IMG/VR virus record: IMGVR_UViG_3300034349_000008
Direction: 5' to 3' (one strand)
Source: a virus
DNA: 64,000 nucleotides
The notes beneath the pieces were generated by a model. It did not search any database. It was given only the letters and a program-made list of their open reading frames with translations, and was not told the origin of the DNA. Positions 2,437 to 64,000 of the stretch are shown here, piece by piece; position 1 is the stretch's first letter, and each line of letters opens with the position of its first letter. Position numbers and translations under genes: made by a program.

Positions 2437-3040
2437 GTCTTGGATTGAAGTTAGACCGGGTGGTTATCTTAAAAAGTATGGTAACCACAAGTTTTATGTT
2501 AGAAACCCTGCTGAAGCAATCAAGGCAATGTTGATTCAAGTTGAAGGATTTGATGAGGCATTTCGTGCTGCTGGTAAGAGAGGTGTAAAGTTCGCAGTAC
2601 GAACTGATAAACGTGATATTACAGACCCTGAACAACTACTGATGGGTAAACCTGAAGTTGTAAGGTTGATCCCTAAATATGCTGGTGGTAAGAACGCAGG
2701 ATTAACTTTCCTTGCTGTTGCTGCAATCATTGCGCTTACAGTAGTAACTGCTGGTACTGGTGGTTATGGTGCGGGTGCATGGTTTGCTGCTGGTAGTACA
2801 TCCGCCGCTGTAGCAACATCGATTGCTGTATCTCTGGCTATCGGTGGTATCACACAATTACTTTCACCACAACCTGAAGGATTATCATCTAGAACCGATA
2901 CTGAAAACAGAGCGTCTTATGCGTTTGGTGGTCCTGTTAACACTGCCGCACAAGGTGTACCAGTTCCAGTGTTCTATGGTTATCGTGAAGTGGGTGGTGC
3001 TGTTGTATCTGCAAGTATTGTATCGGAAGATCAACAATGA
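2429..3040 (+). CDS. Tail assembly protein, lambda gpI-like
   Basis: Overlaps the gpK-like stop. Gly/Ala-rich hydrophobic segment LTFLAVAAIIALTVVTAGTGGYGAGAW and C-terminal FGGPVNT..GVPVPVFYG. Position matches gpI. Confidence 0.7.
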   Translation: MSESWIEVRPGGYLKKYGNHKFYVRNPAEAIKAMLIQVEGFDEAFRAAGKRGVKFAVRTDKRDITDPEQLLMGKPEVVRLIPKYAGGKNAGLTFLAVAAIIALTVVTAGTGGYGAGAWFAAGSTSAAVATSIAVSLAIGGITQLLSPQPEGLSSRTDTENRASYAFGGPVNTAAQGVPVPVFYGYREVGGAVVSASIVSEDQQ

Positions 3041-3060
3041 CAATTACTTAGGAGAATCTA

Positions 3061-6000
3061 ATGTTAGATTACGAAATTCAAGGTGGTAAAGGTGGTGAGA
3101 AGAAACCCTATACCCCGGTTGAAACACCAAACAACCTGCTATCTGTTGCATATGGTAAAGTACTTATCGCAGTAGCTGAAGGTGAACTCGCTGGAACTCC
3201 ATCACCACAAGATATCTTTCTTGATGGTACACCACTGGCTAACGCTGATGGTTCTCGCAACTTCGGTGGTGTAAAATACGAATGGCGTTCAGGTACTACT
3301 GACCAGACATATATTGCAGGTCTTCCAGAAGTATCTACTGAGTACAACGTTGGTGTTGAACTTAAATTTGGTACTCCTTGGGTTCGTAATATTACAAAAT
3401 CAGAACTTGATGCTATCCGTGTTACTTTCCAATGGCCTGCACTTCTTGAGCAAACCTCAAACGGTGACACTATTGGTACATCTATCGGTTACCAAGTTGA
3501 AATCTCAACGGATGGTGGTGCATTTCAGATATACAACTACTACTCTGTTAGTGGTAAGACAAACACTGCATATGAAAGAACTCATCGTATTGACTTACCT
3601 GAAGCAACAACCGGTTGGAGTGTACGTGTATCAAGAACAACACCAGATCAAACAAGTGGTAACATTCAAGACAACATGAACATTAAGAGTTATGCTGAAG
3701 TGGTTGACGTGAAACAACGTTACCCAAACACTGCATTGCTTTATGTTGAGTTTGACAGTCGTATGTTTGGTGGTGGTGCTATTCCAAGAGTATCGGTTAG
3801 AACGAAAGGACGAATCATCCGCGTCCCAAGTAACTATGAACCAGATATAAGAAGTTATAGTGGTATTTGGAACGGTTCTTTTAAATGGGCTTGGTCTGAT
3901 AACCCTGCTTGGGTCTTCTATGACATCATGACTAATGACCGATTTGGTCTTGGTCATAAAGTTGACTTGAATATGGTTGACAAGTGGGCACTTTATGAAG
4001 TGGCTCAATACTGTGACGTGCTGGTAGATGATGGTAGAGGTGGTGGTGGTAAAGAGCCACGTCACACTTGTAACATCTATATCCAAGAGAAGCAAGAAGC
4101 TTGGCAAGTTTTGCGTGACATCGCTTCGATCTTTAACGGTATGACGTACTGGAACGGTAATCAGTTTACAGCAATTGCTGACAAGCGTGAACCTTTCAAT
4201 AATGCTCCTGTGTTCTCACGATCTAACGTTGTCAATGGTCGATTCGACTATTCTGCTGCGGATGACAAGAGTATTTATACCAGTGCATTGGTAAGCTACG
4301 ATAACCCAGACAACCACTATAATACAGATGTTGAAGCTACATTTGAAACAAGTCAGATTTTAAGATGGGGTGGTGATCGTCAGACTGAGATTAGTGCGAT
4401 TGGTTGTACATCTCGTGGTGAGGCTCAGAGACGCGGTAAGTACACGTTAATCACAAACATGTACAACCGTACTGTTTCATTTAAAACGGGTCTACAAGGA
4501 CTCAGTGAGGACGTTGCACCGGGTAAATTGATCCATGTTGTTGACCCTTTGATTGGTGGTCGTCAATTCACTGGTCGAATCAAGATTTCTGCTGGTCGTG
4601 TTATTACACTTGACCGTGAAATTGATGGTAAACAGGGTGACATCCTTTACATGACACGTTCCAATGGTGTCACTGAAGGTCGTACAATTGAAGCTGTTTC
4701 TGGTAACATCGTAACTGTACAAGTTGCTTACACCGAACAACCTCTACCAAATGCGGTTTGGTATCTTGAAGCTGCTGACCTAAAGTCGCAACTGTTCCGA
4801 GTAACAAAGATAACAAGTCCTGACGATAACGTCTATGAGATTACTGGTGTAGAGTACAACGACAGTAAATATGCGGCAATCGATAACGGTGCACGTCTTG
4901 AACCACGCCCAATAAGTGTAGTTCCACCTAACATTCAACAACCACCTACTAACGTTGTTATCAGTTCTACAACCTTTGTTGAACAGACAATGGCTGTTTC
5001 CACGATGACACTATCTTGGGATCAAACAAAGAATGCTGTAGGGTATGAAGCACAATGGCGTGTTGGTGAAGGTGACTGGGTTAACCTTGGTGTTACAGGC
5101 GCTCTTGAGTTTAACGTAAAAGGTATTTATGCTGGTCAATATGTAGCGCGTGTACGTGCAATTAACGCATATGGTATCAAGTCTATTTGGGCAACAAGTA
5201 TCATCACAACACTTGATGGTAAGGCTGGTAAACCACCCACTGTTACTGCAATTGATACAACACCTATGTTCTTCGGTATTCGTCTTGACTGGTACTTCCC
5301 AGAAGGTGCTGAAGATACTCTACGTACAGAGTTCATGTATAGTGAAACAAACAGTTTCTTTGATGCTATAAAACTTGGTGATTTCTCATACCCAACAAAC
5401 TCACACGAACTTCATGGTTTGTCAGCAGGTAAGAAATTTTGGTTCTGGTGTCGTCTACATGACCGAACTGGTAACATTGGTCCTTGGTTCCCATCTGAAA
5501 CAGGTAATGGTATACAGGGTCAAAGTCAGATCAACGATAGTGGTCAGTATAATGAGTATCTTGCTGGTACTATTTCTGAGACTGCTCTTGACAAAGCACT
5601 GTATGATCGTATAGACTTGATCGATGGAAATGGACCCGGTAGTGTAAACGAAAGACTTGAAGATGCTGTTGCTGATCTTGAAGATAAAATCAATAATGTA
5701 ACAGACGCACTTGTCTACAATCCAGATAAATTGTACGAATCTGGTGATATCGTTCGTCAAGGAAGTAAGCTTTACCAAGCTCAGAAAGATGTACCTCTTA
5801 ACACAACTCCTCCTAATGAGGAATATTGGAAGGATGTAGGTACAATCATAGAACAGAGTAATGCTCTTGCTTCTCAGGTTGCTATCAACACTGCTGACAT
5901 TGAAACTATTGATGGTGTACTTACATCAACAGTTACCTCAATCGAATCTCTACAAGCTGCATACCGTGATGATGACGGTGTTGGTGAAATGGATGATGCC

Positions 6001-17535: not shown

Positions 17536-17582
17536 TTTGTATCCTGTATGTATTTTGATGTCGCCTATTCTACAGGCTTGAA

Positions 17583-17747
17583 TTAGTCTGTCAAGCCTTT
17601 AAGATTAACTTCTCTAACTGTATAATAACCACGGGTCAAAGAACCTGTTGCTTCCTCCCAATACAAATGGGAGCGAGCATCTTGTTCATCAGTAAAAGCC
17701 TCTACAAGACTACCACCTTCAACTTCACAAACAACGTAAATAATCAT
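17583..17747 (-). CDS. Hypothetical protein (54 aa)
   Basis: Hand translation MIIYVVCEVEGGSLVEAFTDEQDARSH... ATGA overlap with ORF 17744..17941. Confidence 0.45.
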   Translation of the reverse strand: MIIYVVCEVEGGSLVEAFTDEQDARSHLYWEEATGSLTRGYYTVREVNLKGLTD

Positions 17748-18963: not shown

Positions 18964-18992
18964 TTGACAGAAAAAGATTTCCTCTGTAGAAT
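18964..18992 (+). promoter_or_regulatory. Rightward promoter (TTGACA-17-TAGAAT, start region GGGCAACC)
   Basis: TTGACA 18964-69, TAGAAT 18987-92. Same TGTAGAATGGGC family as the promoters at 58262 and 61375. Confidence 0.5.
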
Positions 18993-55057: not shown

Positions 55058-55086
55058 AACCCCACCAATGAGTGGGGTTTCTTTTG
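55058..55086. terminator. Rho-independent terminator ending the 50.5-55 kb operon
   Basis: AACCCCAC/GTGGGGTT stem followed by TCTTTTG. Confidence 0.8.
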
Positions 55087-55682
55087 TCTTTAGTTTGATA
55101 ATACAGCGAGATATGTCTGCTATATCTAAATAGGAATTGAAGTTTGGAATTTCATGGGATATTGGTGGTTCTGTTTTAATCCAAAAAATCCCCTACACCC
55201 CCTTTTTCAATATTGGGAAAGTAGTTTTCGATTTAGGGAAATCCAGAAATTCACTCACCAGAATTTTGAATTGTACTGCGAGGTGGAATGAAAATCATTC
55301 ACATTTGATAATTAGAATGCGACGAGTTCTCATTTCATATAGAGAAAGGTTCTTATTCTCAAATACCCTTTTCTAAAGAAATGAGAAAATAGCGGGTACT
55401 CTTACGCCCTCGGTTCCCCGACGACATTTTTGAATAGTACAGATAAGTTTAGCACAAGTCAACAATTATTTTCTGATTTGATAATCATTCGTATTTGCAG
55501 AATGACGCCCACCCTCCCCACCTTGTAGTCCAGTATCCACGCTATGCGTTTCGTTCCTGCTATGTATGATTTTACCAGAACTGAAAAAGAATACAAGCAG
55601 TTGACGAAAATATTTATTTATGTTATTCGCACGCGCCCCCCGGTTCATTAATAAACAGGCTGAAAAGAATTCGAAATAGGTG
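55087..55682. other. About 600-bp non-coding, repeat-rich region (candidate genome end, origin or control region)
   Basis: No ORF with SD. TTTGATAAT three times (about 55093, 55306, 55477). 10-bp inverted repeat TTCTCATTTC 55327-36 / GAAATGAGAA 55378-87. C-tracts (CCCCTACACCCCC, CCCACCCTCCCCACC, GCGCCCCCCGG). GTATCCACG is DnaA-box-like. Confidence 0.6.
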
Positions 55683-55710
55683 TTGACTGGTTCTCTAAAT
55701 ACTGTAGACT
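55683..55710 (+). promoter_or_regulatory. Early-array promoter P1 (TTGACT-16-TAGACT)
   Basis: AAATAGGTG upstream. Spacer contains TTCTCTAAAT. Confidence 0.55.
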
Positions 55711-55743
55711 TCACCTTATCGAAACGAAACAAAGGTTCTCTAA

Positions 55744-55950
55744 ATGAAACGTCCAGAAGGCAAGCCAACGGAAATTCGCTTTTGCACTTACGCAAACGCG
55801 ACCGGTCCTAAAATGGAAGTGTTGCACGCGTACAAGATTCCAGTTAGTAATATGTCGAAAGAGGACTGCATTAAGTTCCGGGATGAGTTGTACAAAAATC
55901 CCCATTGTGGTACTTGCACAATCTATCTTGACAACGGCTGCCATATCTGA
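55744..55950 (+). CDS. Hypothetical Cys-containing protein (68 aa)
   Basis: Track ORF. GGTTCTCTAA directly precedes the ATG. Confidence 0.55.
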   Translation: MKRPEGKPTEIRFCTYANATGPKMEVLHAYKIPVSNMSKEDCIKFRDELYKNPHCGTCTIYLDNGCHI

Positions 55951-55958
55951 GGTGTAAC

Positions 55959-56192
55959 ATGCGCTCTATTAAAACCCTTGCTCGCGAAGCTTATAAGAAC
56001 CGTTACGCTTTCGGGCATGTTACAATTGACAAAGACGGGACAATGTTGGGTCACTGGCATGATACTCGCCAGAAACTAAACCCTGTTGAATTGGGTAACA
56101 TTGCAGACTGTTGCACACGGGTTAACGAACGTAAAACCGGTATCCTGTTTTATAACCGTGACTTTATTGTGTATACGTTCGCAATGGAATAG
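55959..56192 (+). CDS. Hypothetical protein (77 aa)
   Basis: Track ORF. GAGG upstream. Confidence 0.55.
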   Translation: MRSIKTLAREAYKNRYAFGHVTIDKDGTMLGHWHDTRQKLNPVELGNIADCCTRVNERKTGILFYNRDFIVYTFAME

Positions 56193-56203
56193 AAAATAAA
56201 AGC

Positions 56204-56231
56204 TTGACGCCTTTTCTAAAGACTGTAGAAT
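56204..56231 (+). promoter_or_regulatory. Early-array promoter P2 (TTGACG-16-TAGAAT)
   Basis: Spacer TTTTCTAAAG. Start region AGGCGTCACAAACAAC. Confidence 0.6.
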
Positions 56232-56264
56232 AGGCGTCACAAACAACGAAAGAGAGTTATCACC

Positions 56265-56414
56265 ATGTCCCTAGACCGTTTTGTAGAACTGTACCTCGAC
56301 TATCGCAACAACTTCTTGACCGTGCAAGCCTTTGCCGCTCATTACGGGTTGTCGATTCTTGACGTAAACAAGATTGTTGAATGTGGTCGCACTATTAGCA
56401 GTATTGAGGAATAA
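56265..56414 (+). CDS. Hypothetical small protein (49 aa)
   Basis: Hand translation MSLDRFVELYLDYRNNFLTVQAFAAHYGLSILDVNKIVECGR... (HTH-like). Confidence 0.4.
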   Translation: MSLDRFVELYLDYRNNFLTVQAFAAHYGLSILDVNKIVECGRTISSIEE

Positions 56415-56418
56415 GAAC

Positions 56419-56733
56419 ATGAAAGCTTCCGAACTGTTGACATTGGCACTCGCTCAATATGAAAATCAAAAGTTTGCGTATATGTGTCATGAAATTGAAC
56501 AAATCGCCCACGTCCACGGCTGCGCAATGGACGCTGATCAATTCTTAAGCGATAAGATACACGCTATTATGGCACCACACGGAACAATTGTTATACATAA
56601 TGTACTGCGCAACACTAGCAAGAAATATGCAGGTTATGTGAACCGTTACGGTCACAACTGTAAGGCTTGTTTGAAAATGCGTGTTGCTTTCTGGCAAGAT
56701 ATGATTGCAGAATTAAAAACAGAAGGTTTGTAA
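56419..56733 (+). CDS. Hypothetical protein (104 aa)
   Basis: ATG 56419, in frame with track ORF 56374..56733. Confidence 0.5.
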   Translation: MKASELLTLALAQYENQKFAYMCHEIEQIAHVHGCAMDADQFLSDKIHAIMAPHGTIVIHNVLRNTSKKYAGYVNRYGHNCKACLKMRVAFWQDMIAELKTEGL

Positions 56734-56749
56734 ACGAGATTTTTGATTG

Positions 56750-56777
56750 TAGACACTTGACTAACCTTAAGTGTCTA
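56750..56777 (+). repeat. 9-bp inverted repeat hairpin (TAGACACTT / AAGTGTCTA)
   Basis: Perfect 9-bp arms with a 10-nt loop. No T-tract. Confidence 0.5.
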
Positions 56778-56822
56778 TGACAAAATGCCTCAAATAAACC
56801 ACTTGATATAAAGAGTATTGAA

Positions 56823-57215
56823 ATGCAACTGATTCATGGTATGACACCGATTGAATATGACACCGTTGTCGCTGGTAAGTACACCACAAAAGTACAGAAC
56901 GCGGCTAAACGTGGAATTCATTTTAATATTTCATTGTCTATGTACCGTACTCTTTTCATGCGTAAGAAATGCGCATATACTGGTATCCCTTTGACTTTGC
57001 GTCGGGATGATAACAACAACCTTCCTAAAAACTATGCGACACTTGAACGCATCGATAGTAAGAAAGGTTATGTTGCGGGTAATGTGGTTGTTATCAGTCA
57101 CGAAGCTAACAGCGTTAAAGCTGTATTTGAAAATCCTGCAAGTGGTAGCATGGATGTATCGGCGGCAATCCGCATGTTTGCTAACATTGAAAGATTGCAA
57201 AAGGGTATGAAATAA
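56823..57215 (+). CDS. HNH-family endonuclease-like protein (130 aa)
   Basis: CAYTGIPLTL..ATLERIDSKKGYVAGNVVVISHEANSVK fits the remembered D/ERID..GY..GN......N..K HNH variant. Confidence 0.5.
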   Translation: MQLIHGMTPIEYDTVVAGKYTTKVQNAAKRGIHFNISLSMYRTLFMRKKCAYTGIPLTLRRDDNNNLPKNYATLERIDSKKGYVAGNVVVISHEANSVKAVFENPASGSMDVSAAIRMFANIERLQKGMK

Positions 57216-57219
57216 ACAG

Positions 57220-57247
57220 TTGACACCCTGATTCAAAGCTGTAGAAT
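57220..57247 (+). promoter_or_regulatory. Early-array promoter P3 (TTGACA-16-TAGAAT)
   Basis: Leader AGACCATGTAAAGACAAACAAC. Confidence 0.6.
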
Positions 57248-57288
57248 AGACCATGTAAAGACAAACAACTGACTAAGGATTCACGGTA

Positions 57289-57417
57289 ATGACTTTGTTC
57301 TTCAAATCCCGCACACTGGCACGCGCTTTCACTTCCAAAAATGGTAAGGTTGTAGACATGGGCGCAGACGCTCCAGCCGGTCGCCGTTGGGCTTTCCGTT
57401 TGAACGGGAAGGTGTAA
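57289..57417 (+). CDS. Hypothetical small basic protein (42 aa)
   Basis: Hand translation MTLFFKSRTLARAFTSKNGKVVDMGADAPAGRRWAFRLNGKV. Confidence 0.35.
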   Translation: MTLFFKSRTLARAFTSKNGKVVDMGADAPAGRRWAFRLNGKV

Positions 57418-57419
57418 CA

Positions 57420-57776
57420 ATGGCTATCAAAAGTGTTTCGGTAAAGACAAAACCTTTTACTTTTCAGCCGGGTGACATTGTTTATACTTGCGAGTTTTTC
57501 AGTTCTCAGACTTTAAAAGTTCTCGCACCATTGGAAGTAAATAATGGTATTGAGAAAGTAAAGGTTTTGATTCTTGATAGTAGTTATGCCTATTCTATCG
57601 GGCGTGAAGACTACATTTTCCCCGGTGATTTGGGTGTTCCGGGCTTTGTATACGATGACCGTAAATGCAGTTTGTTCCGTAGTAAGAAAGCAGCGGACGC
57701 CCACGCGGGTGTATACTCTAAATGGTTGGATGAAAATCCACCAGTTGACTATGGTCATTATTGGGATTGGGACTAA
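57420..57776 (+). CDS. Hypothetical protein (118 aa)
   Basis: ATG 57420, in frame with track ORF 57387..57776. Confidence 0.55.
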   Translation: MAIKSVSVKTKPFTFQPGDIVYTCEFFSSQTLKVLAPLEVNNGIEKVKVLILDSSYAYSIGREDYIFPGDLGVPGFVYDDRKCSLFRSKKAADAHAGVYSKWLDENPPVDYGHYWDWD

Positions 57777-57778
57777 TT

Positions 57779-58162
57779 ATGTGGGACTTCAAACAAGCTG
57801 AAAGTGTTTATAAAACTTCTGAGGAAATGTTCTCACAAGCATTAATTTTAGAAGTTGAACGACTTGCACGGGGTGCAATAAACTCGCACCCATGGGCGAA
57901 AAGCTTTTGCATGGCTATGGGGTCCGCATCTTTCGGTTGTGAGTGGGTAGACGACACTGACCCCGAAGATATTTGGGAACATGACGAAAACCTTGACATT
58001 TACGAATTGATGTATGAACAAGGTAGTCCGACAAACTCTTTCGTTATTGACCTTAATGACTTGTTGCAAAAGTACAATGATACGTTTAAAATTACAGGTT
58101 ATCCAATGCGAATCATTCGTGATAACGTAACTAGTGAACTTGTAACCTTGACAGATTGGTGA
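57779..58162 (+). CDS. Hypothetical acidic protein (127 aa)
   Basis: ATG 57779, in frame with track ORF 57761..58162. Confidence 0.55.
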   Translation: MWDFKQAESVYKTSEEMFSQALILEVERLARGAINSHPWAKSFCMAMGSASFGCEWVDDTDPEDIWEHDENLDIYELMYEQGSPTNSFVIDLNDLLQKYNDTFKITGYPMRIIRDNVTSELVTLTDW

Positions 58163-58168
58163 TAGAGA

Positions 58169-58190
58169 GCCCCGCATTGTCGGGGCTTTT
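58169..58190 (+). terminator. Rho-independent terminator
   Basis: GCCCCG/CGGGGC stem followed by TTTT. Confidence 0.8.
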
Positions 58191-58239
58191 CATGCTTGAA
58201 AGAAAGATAAAAGAATTTGAAAATAGGTGTTTAAATGTG

Positions 58240-58267
58240 TTGACTAGTTTTCTAAAGGTTGTAGAAT
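58240..58267 (+). promoter_or_regulatory. Early-array promoter P4 (TTGACT-16-TAGAAT)
   Basis: GAAAATAGGTG upstream. Spacer TTTTCTAAAG. Start region GGGCGTCAAGAAAGG. Confidence 0.65.
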
Positions 58268-58316
58268 GGGCGTCAAGAAAGGGGAAAACCTCTTTCACCA
58301 CTAAAGAGAAAAGATC

Positions 58317-58610
58317 ATGGCTCGTAAAATCACTACTCAAGCTTGCAATGCATTCATGTCGGCTAAAGGTTTTACCCTTGACAATACAACCGTTAGTGTT
58401 TTTGATGGGAAAATTGTATTGAGCTTACATGGTCACACAATCGCACGCCGTGAAGTTGGTTCAAATGAAATTCAGATTACAAATGCTGGATGGTTCTCAA
58501 ACACCACTAAAGAACGTTTGAATGGTCTTCCGGGCGTTTCGGTTGTGCAACGTAAAGGTGTATGGTTCCTGAATGGTAAAGAATGGAACGGTGAGTGGGT
58601 AACAGTTTAA
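58317..58610 (+). CDS. Hypothetical protein (97 aa)
   Basis: Track ORF. Confidence 0.55.
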   Translation: MARKITTQACNAFMSAKGFTLDNTTVSVFDGKIVLSLHGHTIARREVGSNEIQITNAGWFSNTTKERLNGLPGVSVVQRKGVWFLNGKEWNGEWVTV

Positions 58611-58732
58611 TGAAAACACTATTTGAAGTTTGGAAAGGTAAAGCCATTTATCATGATAGTATAAGTGGACTGTTTGAGTCTCAATCCGGCTATCAATCAT
58701 ATGTATTAAGCCATTGTAGAAATAGAGGTTGA
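58610..58732 (+). CDS. Hypothetical small protein (40 aa)
   Basis: Hand translation MKTLFEVWKGKAIYHDSISGLFESQSGYQSYVLSHCRNRG. TAATG overlap. The 3' end overlaps the next -35. Confidence 0.3.
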   Translation: MKTLFEVWKGKAIYHDSISGLFESQSGYQSYVLSHCRNRG

Positions 58733-58756
58733 CAGGTTCTCTAAACCTGATAGAAT
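58729..58756 (+). promoter_or_regulatory. Early-array promoter P5 (TTGACA-16-TAGAAT, TGn)
   Basis: AAATAGAGG upstream. Spacer GGTTCTCTAAAC. Leader CAAGACAACAAACGG. Confidence 0.6.
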
Positions 58757-58790
58757 AACCCATATCAAGACAACAAACGGAATCAAGATT

Positions 58791-58991
58791 ATGAAAACCA
58801 TTCTTCACAACCGAATCAGCGAAACAAGCTACAACGTGGAACTGGCAATCGAAACTGACGCATATGTGGTTACCTATGGTAAGCAGCGCGAAGTTTACGA
58901 AAATACACCCCAAGGTTTGATGCGTGCACTTCAAGAATATATTGAGTGCGTGTACCATGCTGAAACGTGCGAAGGTTTGCACGACGATTAA
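58791..58991 (+). CDS. Hypothetical protein (66 aa)
   Basis: Track ORF. Confidence 0.55.
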   Translation: MKTILHNRISETSYNVELAIETDAYVVTYGKQREVYENTPQGLMRALQEYIECVYHAETCEGLHDD

Positions 58992-59011
58992 AGATTATTG
59001 ATTACATACTG

Positions 59012-59040
59012 TTGACAAGATTAGCAGTATGTGACAAGAT
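59012..59040 (+). promoter_or_regulatory. Early-array promoter P6 (TTGACA-17-CAAGAT)
   Basis: Weaker -10, related to the TAAGAT promoters at 59960 and 61569. Confidence 0.4.
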
Positions 59041-59087
59041 ACCTTAAATCAAGCGACATAACTTACTTCTCTAAAGGATACAAAATC

Positions 59088-59414
59088 ATGAAAGCAGCTC
59101 AATACTGGAACATCGACAACGTTAAATCCTTTCGTGGTATCGATGTTGTAGACGGTGAAATTTCAATGACTAACAGTGAGTATATTGAATTACTTGATGA
59201 GATTTATGGTGACGTGCAAGTGTGCGGGATGACTTTCAGTTCCGGTAGTTTGTTAGAAGATGCAGATCCTACTGCTTTCCGTTGCGGTAAAGGCGACCAT
59301 GAAAGTCAAATTCAGTCGGAACTGGAAGATCAGTTGGAAAATGAGGACGATAGCGATATTGAATTTATTGACGATGAGCTAACAGACGATGAGGAAGAAG
59401 AGGAAGACGAATAA
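59088..59414 (+). CDS. Highly acidic protein (108 aa), candidate DNA mimic
   Basis: ATG 59088 after TTCTCTAAAGGA, in frame with track ORF 59031..59414. C-terminal ELEDQLENEDDSDIEFIDDELTDDEEEEEDE. Confidence 0.55.
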   Translation: MKAAQYWNIDNVKSFRGIDVVDGEISMTNSEYIELLDEIYGDVQVCGMTFSSGSLLEDADPTAFRCGKGDHESQIQSELEDQLENEDDSDIEFIDDELTDDEEEEEDE

Positions 59415-59428
59415 CATTTGATTTATAG

Positions 59429-59452
59429 AAGCGCTCTAGAATGGGCGCTTTT
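59429..59452 (+). terminator. Hairpin terminator (AAGCGC/GCGCTT)
   Basis: 6-bp stem with a 10-nt loop containing TAGAAT, followed by TTTT. Confidence 0.5.
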
Positions 59453-59462
59453 AGTAAACCAG

Positions 59463-59780
59463 ATGAGGTGTAAAGAATTGAAGATTAACGATGTAACCCC
59501 ATTTGTAAGGCAGTGTATTGCCTTGTGGCTGGCAAGTAACAGACAAGCGACCTTCTCTGTTAGTGAGGTTTGCAAATCGCTACAGGATCAACACAAGAGC
59601 TTACAAGACCTAGATTTAACAAAGTCTGTCAGCAATGAACTGATTCGGTTAGAAACTATCGGTTTACTTTCAAGTCGTAAAGGCTTCAAAGGTGAAAGTC
59701 CAAATGAAACAGGAAGACCGCCACGCGTATACAAACGTGTGTATTGTGAACAGTCTTTAAAAGTATTGAGAAGCGTATGA
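59463..59780 (+). CDS. Winged-helix-like DNA-binding protein candidate (about 100-105 aa)
   Basis: ATG 59463, or TTG 59478 after GAGGTG. FSVSEVCKSL..SVSNELIRLETIGLLSSRK looks like an HTH plus wing. The track start 59418 would read through the terminator. Confidence 0.45.
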   Translation: MRCKELKINDVTPFVRQCIALWLASNRQATFSVSEVCKSLQDQHKSLQDLDLTKSVSNELIRLETIGLLSSRKGFKGESPNETGRPPRVYKRVYCEQSLKVLRSV

Positions 59781-59941
59781 CAATCGATTATAAAATGTGT
59801 CGCCTTAATCGGGCAGACGGAAAGGTTAAAGTTTACGTTTATTCAAATGGTGAATGGTTCCGAATCTTTAAAGATTACGAAATCTGCAAGGTTGACAATG
59901 CAAAGCTTTTGATCGATCACCATTTGAATAAAAACGCTTGA
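59777..59941 (+). CDS. Hypothetical small protein (54 aa)
   Basis: Hand translation MTIDYKMCRLNRADGKVKVYVYSNGEWFRIFKDYEICKVDNAK... ATGA overlap. Confidence 0.4.
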   Translation: MTIDYKMCRLNRADGKVKVYVYSNGEWFRIFKDYEICKVDNAKLLIDHHLNKNA

Positions 59942-59965
59942 CAGACACAAACACTGTGCTAAGAT
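59938..59965 (+). promoter_or_regulatory. Early-array promoter P7 (TTGACA-16-TAAGAT)
   Basis: CTTGACA..TGCTAAGATTC, near-identical layout to 61546-74. Confidence 0.5.
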
Positions 59966-60031
59966 TCACCATGTAGACAGCAGGATGTTCGCAGTAGCTG
60001 CCACTGATTCCTAATCGATGAGGCTTGCAAA

Positions 60032-60256
60032 ATGAACGGACGTGAATACAAGAAACACTGCTTAGCTTTGCGTAACCATGCTTTACTGATGTCGGTCGAA
60101 GGTTTGCAGGAAAGTATCCGGGAAGACTGGAACAACCCTAAATGGCCTTCTATCTTGTTTGACGCAATGAATGACGCACTTGAGAAGAAAATGGGCAAGC
60201 ATGCCTATTCTCAGTGGTTTAATTCCCTTGCTGAAAAAGTCGAAGGTGAAGTATGA
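60032..60256 (+). CDS. Hypothetical protein (74 aa)
   Basis: Track ORF. GAGG upstream. Confidence 0.55.
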   Translation: MNGREYKKHCLALRNHALLMSVEGLQESIREDWNNPKWPSILFDAMNDALEKKMGKHAYSQWFNSLAEKVEGEV

Positions 60257-60501
60257 AAAAGCTATGCACATACACCAGCACACACCACACCTACAGCGTC
60301 CCATATGACCGTGTGGCACGCATCTATGAAAGTGAGGAGCCAGTGTTCAAGGGTTGCCACTTCGAAGTATCTACGCACTCAGGTGGCGTCGGGGTGGATT
60401 GGGAATTTAAACCATTCAAGACCTTGCAAGATGCACAGATTTATGCATTACAGTTTGTTGCACCCTCCCATATCCTTTGTAAATTTAAGCCTGAATTGTG
60501 A
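60253..60501 (+). CDS. Hypothetical protein (82 aa)
   Basis: Track ORF. ATGA overlap. Confidence 0.55.
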   Translation: MKKLCTYTSTHHTYSVPYDRVARIYESEEPVFKGCHFEVSTHSGGVGVDWEFKPFKTLQDAQIYALQFVAPSHILCKFKPEL

Positions 60502-60510
60502 AAATAGGTG

Positions 60511-60539
60511 TTGACGCGGGGTAAAGGTCGTGAGACTAT
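60511..60539 (+). promoter_or_regulatory. Early-array promoter P8 (TTGACG-17-GACTAT)
   Basis: GAAAATAGGTG upstream. Leader GAAACAAACAAAGTTATCTAAAGAGG. Confidence 0.45.
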
Positions 60540-60580
60540 AGCCCCGTCGAAACAAACAAAGTTATCTAAAGAGGTGTAAA

Positions 60581-60916
60581 ATGTCAAATCACGTAAAACA
60601 CTGGGAACATGAATCAGCAGAAGCCGGTTTAGAGTGGTTGTTTGATAATTCTACATCTTGGTTACATGCTGATCATATTCATATTTGGACTGGAAGCTTT
60701 GCAACTTTGGATGGCGGTAACCTTACGGGCGGTTATGGTTGGGTTAGTCGTAAGATGTTAGAAGGTCGTGTTTATAGTGTTAGCTGGTCAAATGATTCCG
60801 TAGCTATTTGCTTTCATGACCAAGTATTTATTGACAGGATACAAAATCGGTCGTATCCTGATGAAACTCGCTGTATTAAAGCACGACTACCATTTATTGC
60901 AACTGAGGTTATTTAA
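60581..60916 (+). CDS. Hypothetical protein (111 aa)
   Basis: Track ORF. AGAGG upstream. Confidence 0.6.
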   Translation: MSNHVKHWEHESAEAGLEWLFDNSTSWLHADHIHIWTGSFATLDGGNLTGGYGWVSRKMLEGRVYSVSWSNDSVAICFHDQVFIDRIQNRSYPDETRCIKARLPFIATEVI

Positions 60917-61168
60917 ATGTCTATCTTCGCAACTATCGCTGTAGTTTGCACAATGGCAACCTGTAATGACTATGTGATCGATACGGCACCGACCATGCAA
61001 GATGCAAACCGTAATACTGATATGCATGATGATCGTTTTCTAGCCTTGTGGGGCGATGAAAAGATGTTGACAGATTGGTTGACAGAATTTAAAATCGGTG
61101 AAACTGTTTTCGAAATCGTTTCCCTTGAAATGGAAACAAAAGAGATTGAAGAGGAATTGATTCCATGA
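60917..61168 (+). CDS. Hypothetical acidic protein (83 aa)
   Basis: Track ORF. GAGG upstream. Confidence 0.55.
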   Translation: MSIFATIAVVCTMATCNDYVIDTAPTMQDANRNTDMHDDRFLALWGDEKMLTDWLTEFKIGETVFEIVSLEMETKEIEEELIP

Positions 61169-61356
61169 TGCCATGGGAAACGTTTATACAAGTGATAATC
61201 TTTATCATTATATTCTTTACCTTTGCTGTTTCCTTCCTAATGTACCTTGATGGGTATTGGTCACCGGTAAGGGTTGACAAACGGCGTTTAAATGCTAATA
61301 CCTTTTCAGCTATCGATAGACGAATGGAACTGAAAAGAAATCAAAATAAGTATTGA
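61165..61356 (+). CDS. Small membrane protein (63 aa)
   Basis: TMD FIQVIIFIIIFFTFAVSFLMYL. ATGA overlap. Confidence 0.55.
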   Translation: MMPWETFIQVIIFIIIFFTFAVSFLMYLDGYWSPVRVDKRRLNANTFSAIDRRMELKRNQNKY

Positions 61357-61380
61357 CCTGTTATCTAAAGAGTGTAGAAT
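61353..61380 (+). promoter_or_regulatory. Early-array promoter P9 (TTGACC-16-TAGAAT)
   Basis: Spacer TTATCTAAAG. Start region GGGCGTCAAGAAGGAG, identical over 12 nt to P4. Confidence 0.65.
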
Positions 61381-61430
61381 GGGCGTCAAGAAGGAGAGAA
61401 AAGGTTCTCTCCTAAAGATAAGGTGACAAA

Positions 61431-61526
61431 ATGAACTACTTGCTCGCTTTGCCCGGTGGTGTAGCTATCACCTACATGGTTCTTTCTATGATTCATTACG
61501 GTTCAATCTTGACTGTAGGTATGTAA
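61431..61526 (+). CDS. Hydrophobic micro-protein (31 aa)
   Basis: Hand translation MNYLLALPGGVAITYMVLSMIHYGSILTVGM. AAGGTGA upstream. Confidence 0.35.
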   Translation: MNYLLALPGGVAITYMVLSMIHYGSILTVGM

Positions 61527-61527
61527 A

Positions 61528-61779
61528 ATGATTACCATAACAAGCTTGACACACCCAACAATGATTGCTAAGATTCGACTGGCAATGAAATTAAGTTTTC
61601 TAGGTCAGGGTGAAAAGATGAATGGTCACGGCAACCGCTGTTACATTCAAGACCGTAAAGGTCGCAACATTATGCGCTTGCAATACACCGATAACAAGTT
61701 TACAATATACGGCGATGAGTCGAAAGATATAACCAAACTTGTTTCAGATGCACTAATTAAAGCTCAGAAGAGTAACTAA
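61528..61779 (+). CDS. Hypothetical protein (83 aa, or 53 aa from ATG 61618)
   Basis: Track ORF. A promoter-like element lies inside its 5' part, so the shorter form MNGHGNRCYIQDRKG... may be the real product. Confidence 0.45.
   Translation: MITITSLTHPTMIAKIRLAMKLSFLGQGEKMNGHGNRCYIQDRKGRNIMRLQYTDNKFTIYGDESKDITKLVSDALIKAQKSN
61546..61574 (+). promoter_or_regulatory. Early-array promoter P10 (TTGACA-17-TAAGAT), inside ORF 61528
   Basis: CTTGACA..TTGCTAAGATTC parallels P7. Confidence 0.4.
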
Positions 61780-61781
61780 CA

Positions 61782-61976
61782 ATGAAAAAACATAACTTTC
61801 TTAATGTGTTCAATATCTCGAAAGCCTTGCATCTTCTGGAAAATGGTTTAGATTATGCTGACATGATCGATGATCTTGTAATGGTTGTTGCCCCTGATAA
61901 TACAGTATGGGTATGTAAGGACGACGGCGTTAGTTGTGGGTTTAACTCTTTAAAGTTGGTTCAACGTATTGTTTAA
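61782..61976 (+). CDS. Hypothetical protein (64 aa)
   Basis: Track ORF. Confidence 0.5.
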   Translation: MKKHNFLNVFNISKALHLLENGLDYADMIDDLVMVVAPDNTVWVCKDDGVSCGFNSLKLVQRIV

Positions 61977-62027
61977 TTATTAACAGAAAGTTCTAACAAG
62001 TAAAAAGAACTTTCGATTAATAATTAA
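61973..62027. repeat. 22-bp inverted repeat (20/22 matches) with 11-nt loop
   Basis: TTAATTATTAACAGAAAGTTCT 61973-94 and AGAACTTTCGATTAATAATTAA 62006-27. Confidence 0.7.
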
Positions 62028-62050
62028 CGTAATAACTAATAGGAGTTCTA

Positions 62051-62209
62051 ATGAATAACAAGTATCGCGTAGTAATGACTGATTCGGTTAACGGTGAACG
62101 TTTCACATTTGCGGTTGTATACCATGCAGCTAACGCAAATGTCGCCGGACATATGGCTATGTCTGAGTGGGACAACTTGACAATTGTTGAAACTCGCCGG
62201 GTGTTCTAA
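62051..62209 (+). CDS. Hypothetical small protein (52 aa)
   Basis: Hand translation MNNKYRVVMTDSVNGERFTFAVVYHAANANVAGHMAMSEWDNLTIVETRRVF. AGGAG upstream. Confidence 0.5.
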   Translation: MNNKYRVVMTDSVNGERFTFAVVYHAANANVAGHMAMSEWDNLTIVETRRVF

Positions 62210-62211
62210 AT

Positions 62212-62514
62212 ATGTTTGTAAGGAAATCAAAGTTTGATGCAGTACAGCGACAACGCGAAGTTAATGCTAATGCTTACTGGCAGTTGCAACGCGAGTATCA
62301 CGCGCTAGATAATAAGCATGATGAACTAGTCGAACGTCTGAACAACCTTGTCAGAAAGGTTAACGACAACGGTGGTGTTGAAATGATCGGTAAACGTTCT
62401 CAGTTTACAGACTCAGAACTTCGAAGCCTGTTGCAACTGGTACACCCTGACAAACATGATGGTAAAGAAAGCGCGAAAATTCTTACCCAAAAAATTAACC
62501 AATTGAGAGCTTGA
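62212..62514 (+). CDS. Protein with J-domain-like HPD segment (100 aa)
   Basis: C-terminal ELRSLLQLVHPDKHDGKESAKILTQKINQL resembles J-domain helix II, HPD loop and helix III. Confidence 0.5.
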   Translation: MFVRKSKFDAVQRQREVNANAYWQLQREYHALDNKHDELVERLNNLVRKVNDNGGVEMIGKRSQFTDSELRSLLQLVHPDKHDGKESAKILTQKINQLRA

Positions 62515-62855
62515 CCATGAAAACTTCCGAAGTACTGACTAAAGCAAAAGAACTCATTGCAACACCTGACAAATGGTATCAAGGCGACTATACAAACAAT
62601 AACGGCTGTTTTTGTGCATTGGGTGCAATCGGTGAAGTTTCTTTAAAATCTGATTCTGTTGATGTATGGTATTACGGTTTTGCAAGTGAAAGTAAAGCGG
62701 GAACGCTTTTACGTAAAGTTGTTGACAGTTACATGATTGAAAACGGATACCGCGATAGCACTACGTTTGCCGTATTCAATGACAACAATTCACATGACGA
62801 CGTTATGTCAGCTTTTGATAAAGCGATTGAACTGGCAAAAGCAGAAGAGGACTAA
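62511..62855 (+). CDS. Hypothetical protein (114 aa)
   Basis: Track ORF. ATGA overlap. Confidence 0.55.
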   Translation: MTMKTSEVLTKAKELIATPDKWYQGDYTNNNGCFCALGAIGEVSLKSDSVDVWYYGFASESKAGTLLRKVVDSYMIENGYRDSTTFAVFNDNNSHDDVMSAFDKAIELAKAEED

Positions 62856-62869
62856 CTAAGGTTCTAAAG

Positions 62870-62883
62870 GTTCCACGTGGAAC
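62870..62883. repeat. Perfect 14-bp palindrome GTTCCACGTGGAAC
   Basis: Lies between the stop of 62511..62855 and the terminator/promoter. Preceded by GTTCTAAAGG. Confidence 0.7.
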
Positions 62884-62920
62884 AAAGCCCGCAATCTTAA
62901 TGGTTGACGGGCTTTTCTTT
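62884..62920 (+). terminator. Terminator hairpin whose loop and 3' arm carry the next -35 box
   Basis: AAAGCCCG 62884-91 pairs with CGGGCTTT 62908-15, then TCTTT. Confidence 0.55.
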
Positions 62921-62932
62921 CGTCTGTAGAAT
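62904..62932 (+). promoter_or_regulatory. Early-array promoter P11 (TTGACG-17-TAGAAT)
   Basis: TTGACG 62904-09, TAGAAT 62927-32. Not followed by an SD-led ORF. Confidence 0.5.
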
Positions 62933-62938
62933 GTGTTT

Positions 62939-63028
62939 CATGGTGTGGGGTTTGGCACGAGACAAACGGGGAGGGTGGACGATACATTATCAATCTCTAT
63001 CGATTAGTCTAAAGCTATAGATTTTATT
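62939..63028 (+). ncRNA. Candidate about 90-nt non-coding transcript (G-rich 5' half)
   Basis: Interval between P11 and P12 has no SD-led ORF. GGTGTGGGGTTTGGCACGAGACAAACGGGGAGGGTGGACG, then a weak hairpin TCTAT/ATAGA plus TTTT. Confidence 0.25.
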
Positions 63029-63030
63029 CA

Positions 63031-63059
63031 TTGTACTACTTATCTAAAGGCTGTAGAAT
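63031..63059 (+). promoter_or_regulatory. Early-array promoter P12 (TTGTAC-17-TAGAAT)
   Basis: Spacer CTTATCTAAAGG. Leader GAACAAACAACGAG. Confidence 0.5.
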
Positions 63060-63091
63060 TACTACATCAGAACAAACAACGAGTAACCAAT

Positions 63092-63454
63092 ATGAACAAA
63101 TTGTGGAAATTCACCAGCGACGAAAAGAAACAAATTCGTCAAGCTGCTTTAAAAGCTACAGGTTTGAAGAGGGTGAGTTTGCAACCCGGTCAGCGTGTGT
63201 CGTTGGTGAATCAGGAACATGCCACATCAAATAACCTTCTAATGGTTGACGATGATCCAACCTTCATATTTAACAAGTCCGACCTGTGGTCAGCAGAGGA
63301 TTGGAAGTGGACCTGTAAGGGTGTAGAACTGACAGCAGATGGTCGGGCATTCCTTGACATTTATGTTTACAGTGTGGGTGAATATGGTGAGCTTCAATTG
63401 AACATCGGTGTTTACTATGCTGATGGTAAGATTCAAAAAATATTCAATAATTGA
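63092..63454 (+). CDS. Hypothetical protein (120 aa)
   Basis: Track ORF. CA-rich leader, no classical SD. Confidence 0.55.
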
Positions 63455-63464
63455 AAAATAAGTG

Positions 63465-63492
63465 TTGACGGTGTGGTTTGTTCCTGTAGAAT
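63465..63492 (+). promoter_or_regulatory. Early-array promoter P13 (TTGACG-16-TAGAAT)
   Basis: GAAAAATAAGTG upstream. Leader AGACCACATAAAGAAGC with hairpin AAGAAGC/GCTTCTT. Confidence 0.6.
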
Positions 63493-63551
63493 AGACCACA
63501 TAAAGAAGCAAAACAGCTTCTTAAGTTAACAACTTCTCTAAAGGTGATAGA

Positions 63552-64000
63552 ATGAACGTAATGACCGAAGCACACAAAGCAGTCAAAGCAGTATTGACTA
63601 ATGCTCCTGTCGGTGTTACGTTGAACTATCGCTCTCTGTTGAAAGCAGCACTTACCGACATGCATAGGAAGAATAAAGAAATGAAACCAACTAAAACCTT
63701 GACAGTAGATCAAATGTTTGCAATCAAACACTTCGAAGATTGCATCGCTCGTACCCTTGAGCAGTTCGAAAAGTTGGGTGTTAATGATTACTATGTCGCA
63801 CTGGCAAACAATGTAGAATTGAACGATTACACACTGTTGCAACACAAAGATGTAAATGATAAACAATCTCCATTGGGTTGGGCAACATACAGCACTGCAA
63901 TCGTAACCAGTCCAGCACAAGCAGACGAATATGTAAAGGCTTTCCCCGGCACTTGCAAGCTCCATGCCCAAACGCACCTTTCGAATGTCATTCAATCTTT
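63552..64000 (+). CDS. Hypothetical protein, 5' part (continues beyond window)
   Basis: Hand translation MNVMTEAHKAVKAVLTNAPVGVTLNYRSLLKAALTDMHRKNKEM... is open for all 449 nt to the window end. AAGGTGA upstream. Absent from the track because no stop lies in the window. Confidence 0.6.
   Translation, partial: MNVMTEAHKAVKAVLTNAPVGVTLNYRSLLKAALTDMHRKNKEMKPTKTLTVDQMFAIKHFEDCIARTLEQFEKLGVNDYYVALANNVELNDYTLLQHKDVNDKQSPLGWATYSTAIVTSPAQADEYVKAFPGTCKLHAQTHLSNVIQS

Follow-up and report, generated by a model that had tools for sequence, protein, structure and literature searches.

Promoter-like sequences that resemble one another well beyond their hexamers stand between the small genes at the far end of a 64,000-nucleotide stretch of viral DNA, IMG/VR record IMGVR_UViG_3300034349_000008 (the window, by which we mean the whole stretch analyzed). 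The question that this locus raises is whether they are copies of a reusable regulatory unit or promoters that came to look alike separately. A first-pass annotation, made from the letters alone, had proposed an array of thirteen homologous promoter-leader modules between 55.68 and 63.56 kb, each driving one to three early genes, and had likened them to the PeSL cassettes known from the T4-type phages RB49 and phi1 (Arbiol et al. 2010; PMC2839356). Comparison with related genomes leads us to an answer that we consider probable: the locus is a one-directional array of early genes in short transcription units, each headed by a composite regulatory cassette, and the cassettes are reused across genes.

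The window is part of a tailed siphophage genome of ∼100 kb. It holds tail protein genes at 3-11 kb, a primase-helicase and a DNA polymerase at 25-29 kb, and a ribonucleotide reductase at 44.5-47.2 kb; no tRNA genes were found in the 64 kb. In a protein search, the DNA polymerase was 75% identical to that of Pseudomonas phage vB_PpS_SYP (SYP below) and 60% identical to that of phiPMW, and these two siphophages of 103-107 kb are its kin. A megablast search with the interval returned no close nucleotide match among GenBank phages. We therefore relied on a protein-seeded search of IMG/VR and on a scan of the same database for the exact pattern of the promoter type called class A below, which yielded contigs of 97-107 kb (L004/L015, L014, L016, and L017, with L005 more distant) that are colinear with the window at 66-82% nucleotide identity. 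Four to five of these metagenomic relatives have the same layout: 3' of the last large gene comes a terminator (50466), then close-packed small genes up to 55.04 kb, a second terminator (55058; both called by a consensus scan), and ∼600 bp free of genes, and from 55.68 kb on, small genes follow in a row on the + strand with spaced intergenic regions between them. SYP and phiPMW match this layout, from the packed genes, the terminator, and the ∼600 bp without genes to the small-gene array with spaced promoters. The array goes on beyond the window to at least 65.9 kb, as seen from a public Logan contig (L019) that is identical to the last 2.6 kb; its positions 2640-4548 (window 64001-65909) contain four further promoter-like sites, two with good hexamers and two weak. 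One of these, near 64,480, is of class A, with the -35 box TTGTAT and a leader hairpin GGGAGGC/GCCTCCC.

All thirteen coordinate pairs in the first-pass annotation carry the sequences described for them, and the likeness outside the hexamers (upstream A-tract, spacer word, TGTAGAAT, GGGCGTCAAGA start regions, CA-rich leaders) is as it had reported. This signal greatly exceeds chance. In the window, TTGAC-N15-18-TAGAAT occurs 11 times where 0.35 would be expected, with 7 of the 11 inside 55.68-63.56 kb; TGTAGAAT occurs 17 times against 3.6 expected; and TCTAAAG is the top enriched 7-mer of 55-64 kb (10 against 0.49 expected). On the + strand, 38 sites match the hexamers at 10 or more of 12 positions, as do 9 on the - strand; of the 38 good sigma70 sites on the + strand, 20 fall in the last 14 kb. 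When we scanned the interval with a 52-nt weight matrix trained solely on 27 sites from related genomes, 8 matches scored 9-62 bits, compared with 4.8 bits for the best match among 20 shuffles. The A-tract, (G)AAA(A)TA(A/G), lies directly 5' of the -35 box in nine of the thirteen listed sites, and a C-A step 7-8 nt past the -10 box, the candidate transcription start, is conserved in most modules.

Alignment of ∼70 credible promoters from eight genomes revealed a common plan. It begins with (G)AAAATA(A/G)NNN abutting TTGAC, a spacer of 16 or 17 nt, and (T)GTAGAAT or TGCTAGAAT; it continues, often through GG(G/A)C, to the C-A step, AAGA with a purine run, and a CA-rich stretch; and it ends in a Shine-Dalgarno (SD) sequence of the UAAAGG/UAAGGAG type. 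Some cassettes open with an intrinsic terminator, and the A-rich, UP-type tract often holds the stop codon of the previous gene; this stop lies in the A-tract or in TTGAC itself for the genes ending at 58732, 59941, and 61356. In about one third of cases, the purine-rich start region folds as a 5'-terminal hairpin. Strong sigma70 promoters combine an UP element, -35 and -10 boxes, a G-rich discriminator, and a purine start, so most elements of the modules would be those expected of such promoters.

Contrary to the first-pass proposal, the thirteen sites do not form one family. They fall into at least three classes, five to eight of them making up a sharp class A, and they include one site within a gene and two whose -10 boxes are weak. 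Class A is defined by TT-N-TCTAAA(G/T/C) in a 16-nt spacer; 55683, 56204, 58240, 58729, and 61353 belong to it, 63031 and the unlisted 63526 are variants, and 57220 is a marginal member. Sites 59938 and 61546 have TGCTAAGAT in common, and 59012 belongs to a AGATTAGCA class found in SYP and phiPMW too. The site at 61546 is doubtful as a separate module, since it lies inside gene 61528-61779, whose N terminus (MITITSLTHPTMIAKI) is conserved as protein in L004 and L017. The sites at 59012 and 60511 are present, but their -10 boxes match at only 3 of 6 positions; 60511 is nevertheless conserved in L004. Two units had been missed, a stem-loop with TTGACT-18-CAAAAT at 56741-56786 and the core at 63526-63553. 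The proposed one-strand array with one to three small genes per unit stands, except that genes 59463-59941 follow a terminator without a promoter of their own.

The exact class A pattern was found in 5 of 2.9 million viral contigs and matched once in 596 Gb of cellular genomes, which is about the number that 20 fixed bases give by chance. We conclude that class A is a clade-specific element, and the same count rules it out as a type of host promoter. Weaker relatives of the module had been reported at 18964, 22722, 29372, and 50509; these prove to be real, and the - strand has a fifth (17567-17594). All five read TTGACAG...TGTAGAAT GG.C ...ATCAA without the class A spacer and head helicase, replication, and nucleotide-metabolism operons, which suggests that the genome has two promoter classes.

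The evidence that carries the cassette reading comes from following modules and genes separately across the relatives. Array gene content differs strongly among them, so the identical content that the first-pass annotation had named as counting against its proposal is not what the related genomes have; rather, one and the same module can stand before different genes, and a given gene can have different modules in front of it. Up to the ATG, the first promoter with its leader is kept in five genomes (the window, L004, L014, L016, and L017) with a different first gene in each, and homology between relatives likewise ends at the ATG at P60511 and in the P58240 unit (promoters are named by position; see Table 1). 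That unit, consisting of terminator, promoter, and hairpin, recurs in four genomes (the window, L004, L014, and L017) with three different genes behind it. P56204 has 91% identical copies in L017 and L014 with other genes behind them, and P60511 is kept in L004 up to the ATG, where a different gene begins, while L017 and L014 have another module and another gene at that place. Conversely, gene 58317 has a different module in L004 than in the window, and gene 59088 follows a AGATTAGCA-class promoter in the window and class A promoters in L004 and L017. Even a part of the module can be reused: the ribosome-binding site (RBS) sub-module CTTCTCTAAAGGATACAA precedes two unrelated genes, 59088 and one at ∼64.5 kb.

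Counts over all genomes agree with these cases. Where modules from two genomes are at least 80% identical over 71 nt, homologous genes follow in 4 of 29 pairs; where the first genes are homologous, the modules are at least 75% identical in 6 of 38 pairs, and their median identity is 66% against a background of 63%. Nucleotide matches were found in 2.1 of 6 relatives for intergenic modules and in 1.2 of 6 for coding sequence, and P61353 reaches 4.7 of 6 while its flanking genes have 1.5 and 1.0. Modules are also gained or lost, as between homologues of the first two genes, where L017 has a promoter and the window 8 nt, and duplicated modules flank extra cassettes in L017 and L004; the first module of L017 occurs twice, on either side of such a cassette. 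On these comparisons, reassortment of modules and genes is established, and the cassette types are few, older than the divergence of these phages, and reused before unrelated small genes.

If the cassette reading is right, host sigma70 RNA polymerase would fire every cassette upon DNA entry, terminators and stem-loops would insulate the units from one another in part, and the 5' hairpin would most likely protect the mRNA end. The likely route of reassortment would be homologous recombination when relatives co-infect a cell, with the cassette copies as substrates, as has been proposed for PeSL. The "early" timing and "host takeover" roles given to the array in the first-pass annotation we likewise infer.

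Several observations weigh against this reading or limit it. That the promoters are active and early, where they start, and how well the terminators work is deduced in each case from matches to consensus. Part of the likeness could be convergent, because an A-tract, -35 and -10 boxes, a GGG discriminator, and a C-A start are expected of any strong sigma70 promoter. A strong stem-loop is present in a minority of modules only, and the conservation of the class A spacer is unaccounted for by the cassette model. Finally, the first-pass annotation had suggested that the modules serve as recombination substrates. The duplicated modules fit this suggestion, but hand counts of synteny breaks from tblastn maps of L017 and L004 gave no enrichment at modules: breaks were present at 6 of 7 informative junctions that have a module and at 6 of 9 without one in L017, and at 5 of 6 and 11 of 12, respectively, in L004. 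Moreover, some single genes inside operons are cleanly present in one genome and absent from another: 57420-57776, 61528-61779, and 62212-62514, which have no module nearby, and 61165-61356. Given the similar break rates and these single-gene insertions and deletions, recombination at modules is neither necessary nor demonstrably preferred. Recombination within modules would still be a reasonable mechanism behind the reassortment, and other routes clearly operate too.

We considered whether the stem-loops, rather than the promoters, could be the main point of the units. The three hairpin terminators of the first-pass annotation (58169, 59429, and 62884) are well supported, with folding energies of -16 to -21 kcal/mol and z scores of -3 to -4.6. 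Two of them are GC-rich hairpins with a T-run (58165-58190, then TTTT; 62885-62914, then TTTTCTTT), and that at 59426-59453 has a short T-run only. Stem-loops occupy variable positions relative to the promoters (56205-56239, 56741-56785, 58165-58190, 62885-62914, and 63471-63501, and in the leader 58277-58296 and 61392-61413), and 16 of the 70 promoter cores lie within palindromes with z below -2. In the palindromic cores, of which P56204, P63465, and the 56757 unit are window examples, TTGACGCC pairs with GGCGTCAA of the start region, as does TTCTA in the spacer with TAGAA in the -10 box. These structures could be attenuators that meter read-through between units, or terminators of antisense transcripts. 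Strong hairpins do overlap or bracket the promoters at 56205-56239, 56741-56785, 62885-62914, and 63471-63501; on the other strand, the A-tract turns into a T-run right after the hairpin, so that the 56204 palindrome read on the - strand is followed by GCTTTTATTTTC; and one PeSL stem-loop has been shown to terminate (PMC2839356). However, the + strand continues after most of these promoter hairpins with purine-rich sequence and no T-run, the terminator calls of the consensus scan do not include them, the array has no known genes or promoters on the - strand, and most modules lack a strong hairpin (median z of the 70 cores, -0.12). We regard this explanation as unlikely, though less so than the rivals considered below.

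The leader hairpins behave differently. We counted 20 of them in eight genomes by folding each sequence and comparing pairs from the loop outward, as stems of unequal length fall out of register in a MAFFT alignment. They start 10-14 nt past the -10 box and have 4-9 pairs and A-rich loops, and their 16 different 5' arms are all paired, with G-C and A-U swapped at every position; 137 of the 144 bases in the 5' arms are purines. The hairpin is a subclass feature, and the mean folding energy over all 62 leaders did not differ significantly from that of shuffles (p 0.09). From its position and the absence of a T-run, we take it to be a protector of the mRNA 5' end. Stem-loops at the 5' terminus stabilize bacterial mRNAs, the ompA leader being an example, and as in ompA, the hairpin here lies within a few nucleotides of the predicted 5' end, keeps its place while its sequence changes, and has no T-run. 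Unlike that of ompA, its 5' arm consists almost wholly of purines and looks like an SD sequence, which points to a further constraint, perhaps from promoter escape or from ribosome binding.

The class A spacer allows two readings, either as the arm of a stem-loop that pairs with the -10 box or as an operator. In the second, the dyad TTCTA-N7-TAGAA, extended in some copies to TTGACGCC...GGCGTCAA, would be bound by a dimeric phage regulator that switches the array off after the early phase, the candidate being a winged-helix protein encoded at 59463-59780. This would supplement the cassette model and not replace it. The spacer is kept among paralogues and among orthologues at 66-80% genome identity, whereas the spacers of the promoters orthologous to that of gene 57289 (L004, L014, L016, SYP, and phiPMW) differ freely; it is restricted to the early array and lacking from the similar promoters at 17594 (-), 18964, 22722, 29372, and 50509; and a SYP variant at the same position, TTATCTAGA(A/T)A, retains the same TCTA-N7-TAGA dyad. 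The protein, modeled as a winged helix nearest to repressors of the PadR, BlaI/MecI, and ArsR types, is conserved in L004, L005, L014, L017, and SYP. On the other hand, two conserved words, the -10 box itself being one of them, are enough to produce the dyad, and phiPMW has little of the spacer word. The structural model comes from a single sequence at pLDDT 70, its fold matches are weak (E of 4e-3 and above), no Pfam, PHROG, or PDB sequence match was found, and nothing ties the protein to class A sites. We consider an operator improbable, somewhat more so than the attenuators and antisense terminators discussed above. The protein itself has 105 amino acids and is conserved across six genomes of the clade; its gene follows a terminator and lacks a promoter of its own.

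At two places, 63526-63554 and 60565-60583, a class A core or its remnant doubles as a translation start: AAAGGTGA or AAAGAGGTG is the SD sequence, and the ATG consists of the two final bases of the -10-like box followed by a G. A still less probable proposal generalizes such use, with the core serving as DNA in a promoter whose dyad is the operator for the 59463-59780 protein, a common off-switch, and as RNA (UAAAGG-N-UAGAAUG) in an RBS and start codon. Were it true, one recombination would give a new gene its promoter, timing control, cap-like 5' hairpin, and translation start signals. As for TCTAAAG before start codons, we considered two roles, a separate RNA operator and a second tandem promoter. 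Both were rejected for the most part after comparison with the leaders of SYP and phiPMW, because in leaders the word is the pyrimidine arm of the hairpin plus the UAAAGG SD sequence. The starts predicted from these leader "promoters" fall inside genes, 63526 excepted.

Least credible of all is pure convergence, in which each promoter was optimized separately for the same RNA polymerase contacts and the units are immobile and share no descent: the top-conserved columns are indeed known contact elements (A-tract, TTGAC, TAGAAT, GG after the -10 box, C-A start), and only such elements are kept in the gene 57289 promoters of six genomes while the spacer drifts, but parts that make no contact are shared as well (spacer word, leader hairpin, and the 40-60 nt of leader that run down to the RBS, at 80-93% identity before unrelated genes), the relatives' weight matrix scores window sites at 41-62 bits, and the exact class A pattern is confined to the clade, the long shared leaders largely refuting it.

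Returning to the cassette reading, the analogy with PeSL drawn in the first-pass annotation is apt, since stem-loops are present, the units lie between genes in a hyperplastic region, and relatives differ by cassettes. Both systems have repeated intergenic units with a strong sigma70-like promoter (here by consensus) and an AT-rich upstream tract that contains the upstream stop codon, with an SD sequence and start codon at the 3' end. In both, the units crowd before small genes of unknown function, and relatives differ by insertion, deletion, and replacement of cassettes. The PeSL stem-loop may be upstream, between -35 and -10, overlapping either box, or downstream, and its position varies likewise here, in a subset of units. 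There are differences. The lineage here is that of a ∼100-kb siphophage related to Plaisancevirus and not a T4-type myovirus; a strong stem-loop is found in only about a quarter of cores; the units reach further downstream and take in a conserved start region, the purine/pyrimidine 5' hairpin, and an RBS sub-module; and one class is defined by a clade-specific spacer word. Mini-circles as well as promoter and terminator activity have been demonstrated for PeSLs, whereas the present units are known from sequence alone. Because the relatives compared here are much more diverged (66-82% nucleotide identity, against ∼96% amino-acid identity for the PeSL phages), single recombination junctions are unreadable. 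The array is a genuine, well-defined feature and appears to add a member from another phage lineage to the known PeSL-like class.

For phiPMW, 30 sigma70 promoter candidates have been tabulated, with a consensus TTGACAAGGTTNTCAAATCTTGTATATAAT that reaches into the spacer (Magill et al. 2017; PMC5587285). In this related genome with the same layout, many of the candidates lie in the homologous small-gene region and several have TGTAGAAT. The published sequences run from hexamer to hexamer only, and the paper does not treat leaders, hairpins, classes, or module reuse. The TCTAAAG word is not enriched in phiPMW.

Early promoters of T4 and T5, which are used by unmodified host polymerase, are conserved beyond the hexamers too, with A-tracts and particular start regions, and cluster before small non-essential genes; their sequences are not known to be related to those of the window modules. 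If the cassette reading holds, mobile regulatory cassettes, documented so far in T4-type myoviruses, would extend to unrelated large siphophages. This would point to a general route by which phages try new small genes, with promoter, leader, and RBS as the reusable unit behind which genes are swapped. The clade-specific 52-nt motif can mark early-gene regions in metagenomic contigs, and for Pseudomonas-type hosts, the modules and their natural variants offer a set of compact promoter-leader parts that are probably very strong. Two details that call for explanation, the spacer word and the purine/pyrimidine 5' hairpin, make concrete and inexpensive targets for reporter and binding work.

Table 1. 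Coordinates and composition of the units in and around the array; scores are those of the weight matrix, and folding energies refer to the structure named in the same line.
Feature	Coordinates	Strand	Composition	Score (bits)	Folding (kcal/mol; z)
First early module (P55683), class A	55660..55746	+	A-tract CTGAAAAGAATTCGAAATAGGTG; TTGACT-16-TAGACT at 55683-55710; spacer TTCTCTAAAT; CA-rich leader; start codon of gene 55744	45.7	
P56204, class A	56192..56267	+	TTGACG-16-TAGAAT at 56204-56231; palindromic core 56205-56239	61.6	-17.6; z -5.1
Stem-loop and weak promoter	56741..56825	+	Stem-loop 56741-56785 overlapping TTGACT-18-CAAAAT at 56757-56786; 5' of Srd/HNH-like gene 56823-57215		-19.3; z -7.3
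P57220, class A marginal	57207..57291	+	TTGACA-16-TAGAAT; spacer not class A; heads three genes 57289-58162	22.4	
Terminator and P58240, class A with leader hairpin	58165..58319	+	Terminator 58165-58190; core 58240-58267; hairpin 58277-58296; RBS of gene 58317-58610		Terminator -16.3; leader hairpin -10.2
P58729, class A	58716..58793	+	TTGACA-16-TAGAAT; TG extension	42.4	
P59012, other class	59000..59090	+	TTGACAAGATTAGCA...; TGn and weak -10 CAAGAT; RBS sub-module CTTCTCTAAAGGATACAA before gene 59088-59414		
Terminator-like hairpin	59426..59453	+	Loop TAGAAT; short T-run		-16; z -4.6
P59938, not class A	59925..60034	+	TTGACA-16-TAAGAT; TG extension; heads genes 60032-60501		
P60511	60498..60583	+	A-tract GAAAATAGGTG; TTGACG; weak -10 TGAGACTAT; inverted repeat CGGGG/CCCCG around core		
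P61353, class A	61330..61433	+	Core 61353-80; start region GGGCGTCAAGAA; 9-bp leader hairpin 61392-61413	51	Leader hairpin -12.9
Promoter-like site, doubtful as module	61546..61574	+	TTGACA-17-TAAGAT; TG extension; within coding sequence 61528-61779, which has its own SD and ATG at 61528		
AT-rich hairpin	61973..62027	+	22-nt arms, 91% complementary; between genes 61782-61976 and 62051-62209		-18.5; z -5.5
Terminator, P62904, and P63031	62885..63094	+	Terminator 62885-62914; P62904 at 62904-62932; class A-like P63031, TTGTAC-17-TAGAAT; leader of gene 63092-63454		Terminator -20.9; z -4.5
P63465 and second class A core	63452..63554	+	TTGACG-16-TAGAAT; palindrome 63471-63501; leader hairpin; core 63526-63553	15.8 and 9.0	Palindrome -16.8; z -4.8

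The individual units differ in how their parts are combined. The core of P56204 is wholly palindromic, TTGACGCC pairing with GGCGTCA and TTCTA with TAGAA, and the palindrome of P63465 covers spacer, -10 box, and start region. P57220 and P63465 share the start region AGACCATGTAAAGA. In P58729, the spacer holds a small hairpin (CAGGTT/AACCTG); the TGA of its TTGACA is the stop codon of the upstream gene, as is the TGA of TTGACC in P61353. The leader of P60511 ends in TATCTAAAGAGGTGTAAAATG, whose ATG is the gene start, and at 63526-63553 AAAGGTGA serves as SD sequence and TAGAATG provides the start codon of gene 63552. The 3' arm of the terminator at 62885-62914 contains the -35 box of P62904. 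No promoter was found at or near the AT-rich hairpin at 61973-62027.

Conservation is equally uneven. The stem-loop unit at 56741 is 86% identical in L004, and the whole P57220 cassette is absent from L017. P58729 is 93% identical to L017 P11105, which drives a homologue of the next gene, 59088-59414, and in L004 P59938 is kept together with both of its genes (89% identity for the module, with a homologous gene behind it); the same two-gene cassette occurs in phiPMW. Relative to the orthologous units in L004, L014, and L017, P58240 has a 10-nt insertion (GTGTTTAAAT, 58229-58238) between A-tract and -35 box, probably a local duplication, that shifts the A-tract by one helical turn. We had considered P58240 as a chimera of two L004 modules; the alignment gives one orthologous unit with the insertion.

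Functional hints from the array genes are few. Among 14 gene products searched (10 per library), 3 had Pfam matches and 6 had PHROG matches, 5 of the latter to families of unknown function. The product of 56823-57215 (130 amino acids) matched PHROG families annotated as HNH endonuclease, T4 Srd anti-sigma factor, and "decoy of host sigma70" (E 6e-32 to 2e-17), and this is the sole array gene with a hint of a role in host takeover. Genes 58317-58610 and 62517-62855 matched the Pfam families Kyano_Gp96 (PF23790) and DUF6197, both of unknown function.

The gene-free stretch at 55080-55680, between the terminator 55058 and the first early promoter, is ∼69% identical in five related genomes. It contains a conserved leftward sigma70-like promoter, TTGACT-17-TACTAT from 55462 to 55434, with an A-tract of its own, which points into 350 nt without an open reading frame of at least 30 amino acids. 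Candidate roles for the stretch are a non-coding RNA, an origin, and a genome end. RNAalifold detected no covariation in the 600 bp, and a structured RNA there was rejected; a search of 54.9-64 kb against Rfam at a permissive threshold returned no known RNA family.

Two short intergenic segments within the array also stand out. The ∼100 nt between the tandem promoters P62904 and P63031 (62933-63030) contain no SD-led open reading frame; an ATG 8 nt past the -10 box could open a leaderless frame of 26 codons, or the segment could be a small RNA. The 59 nt at 59403-59461 are 97% identical to L004, and the flanking genes are ∼80% identical or less.

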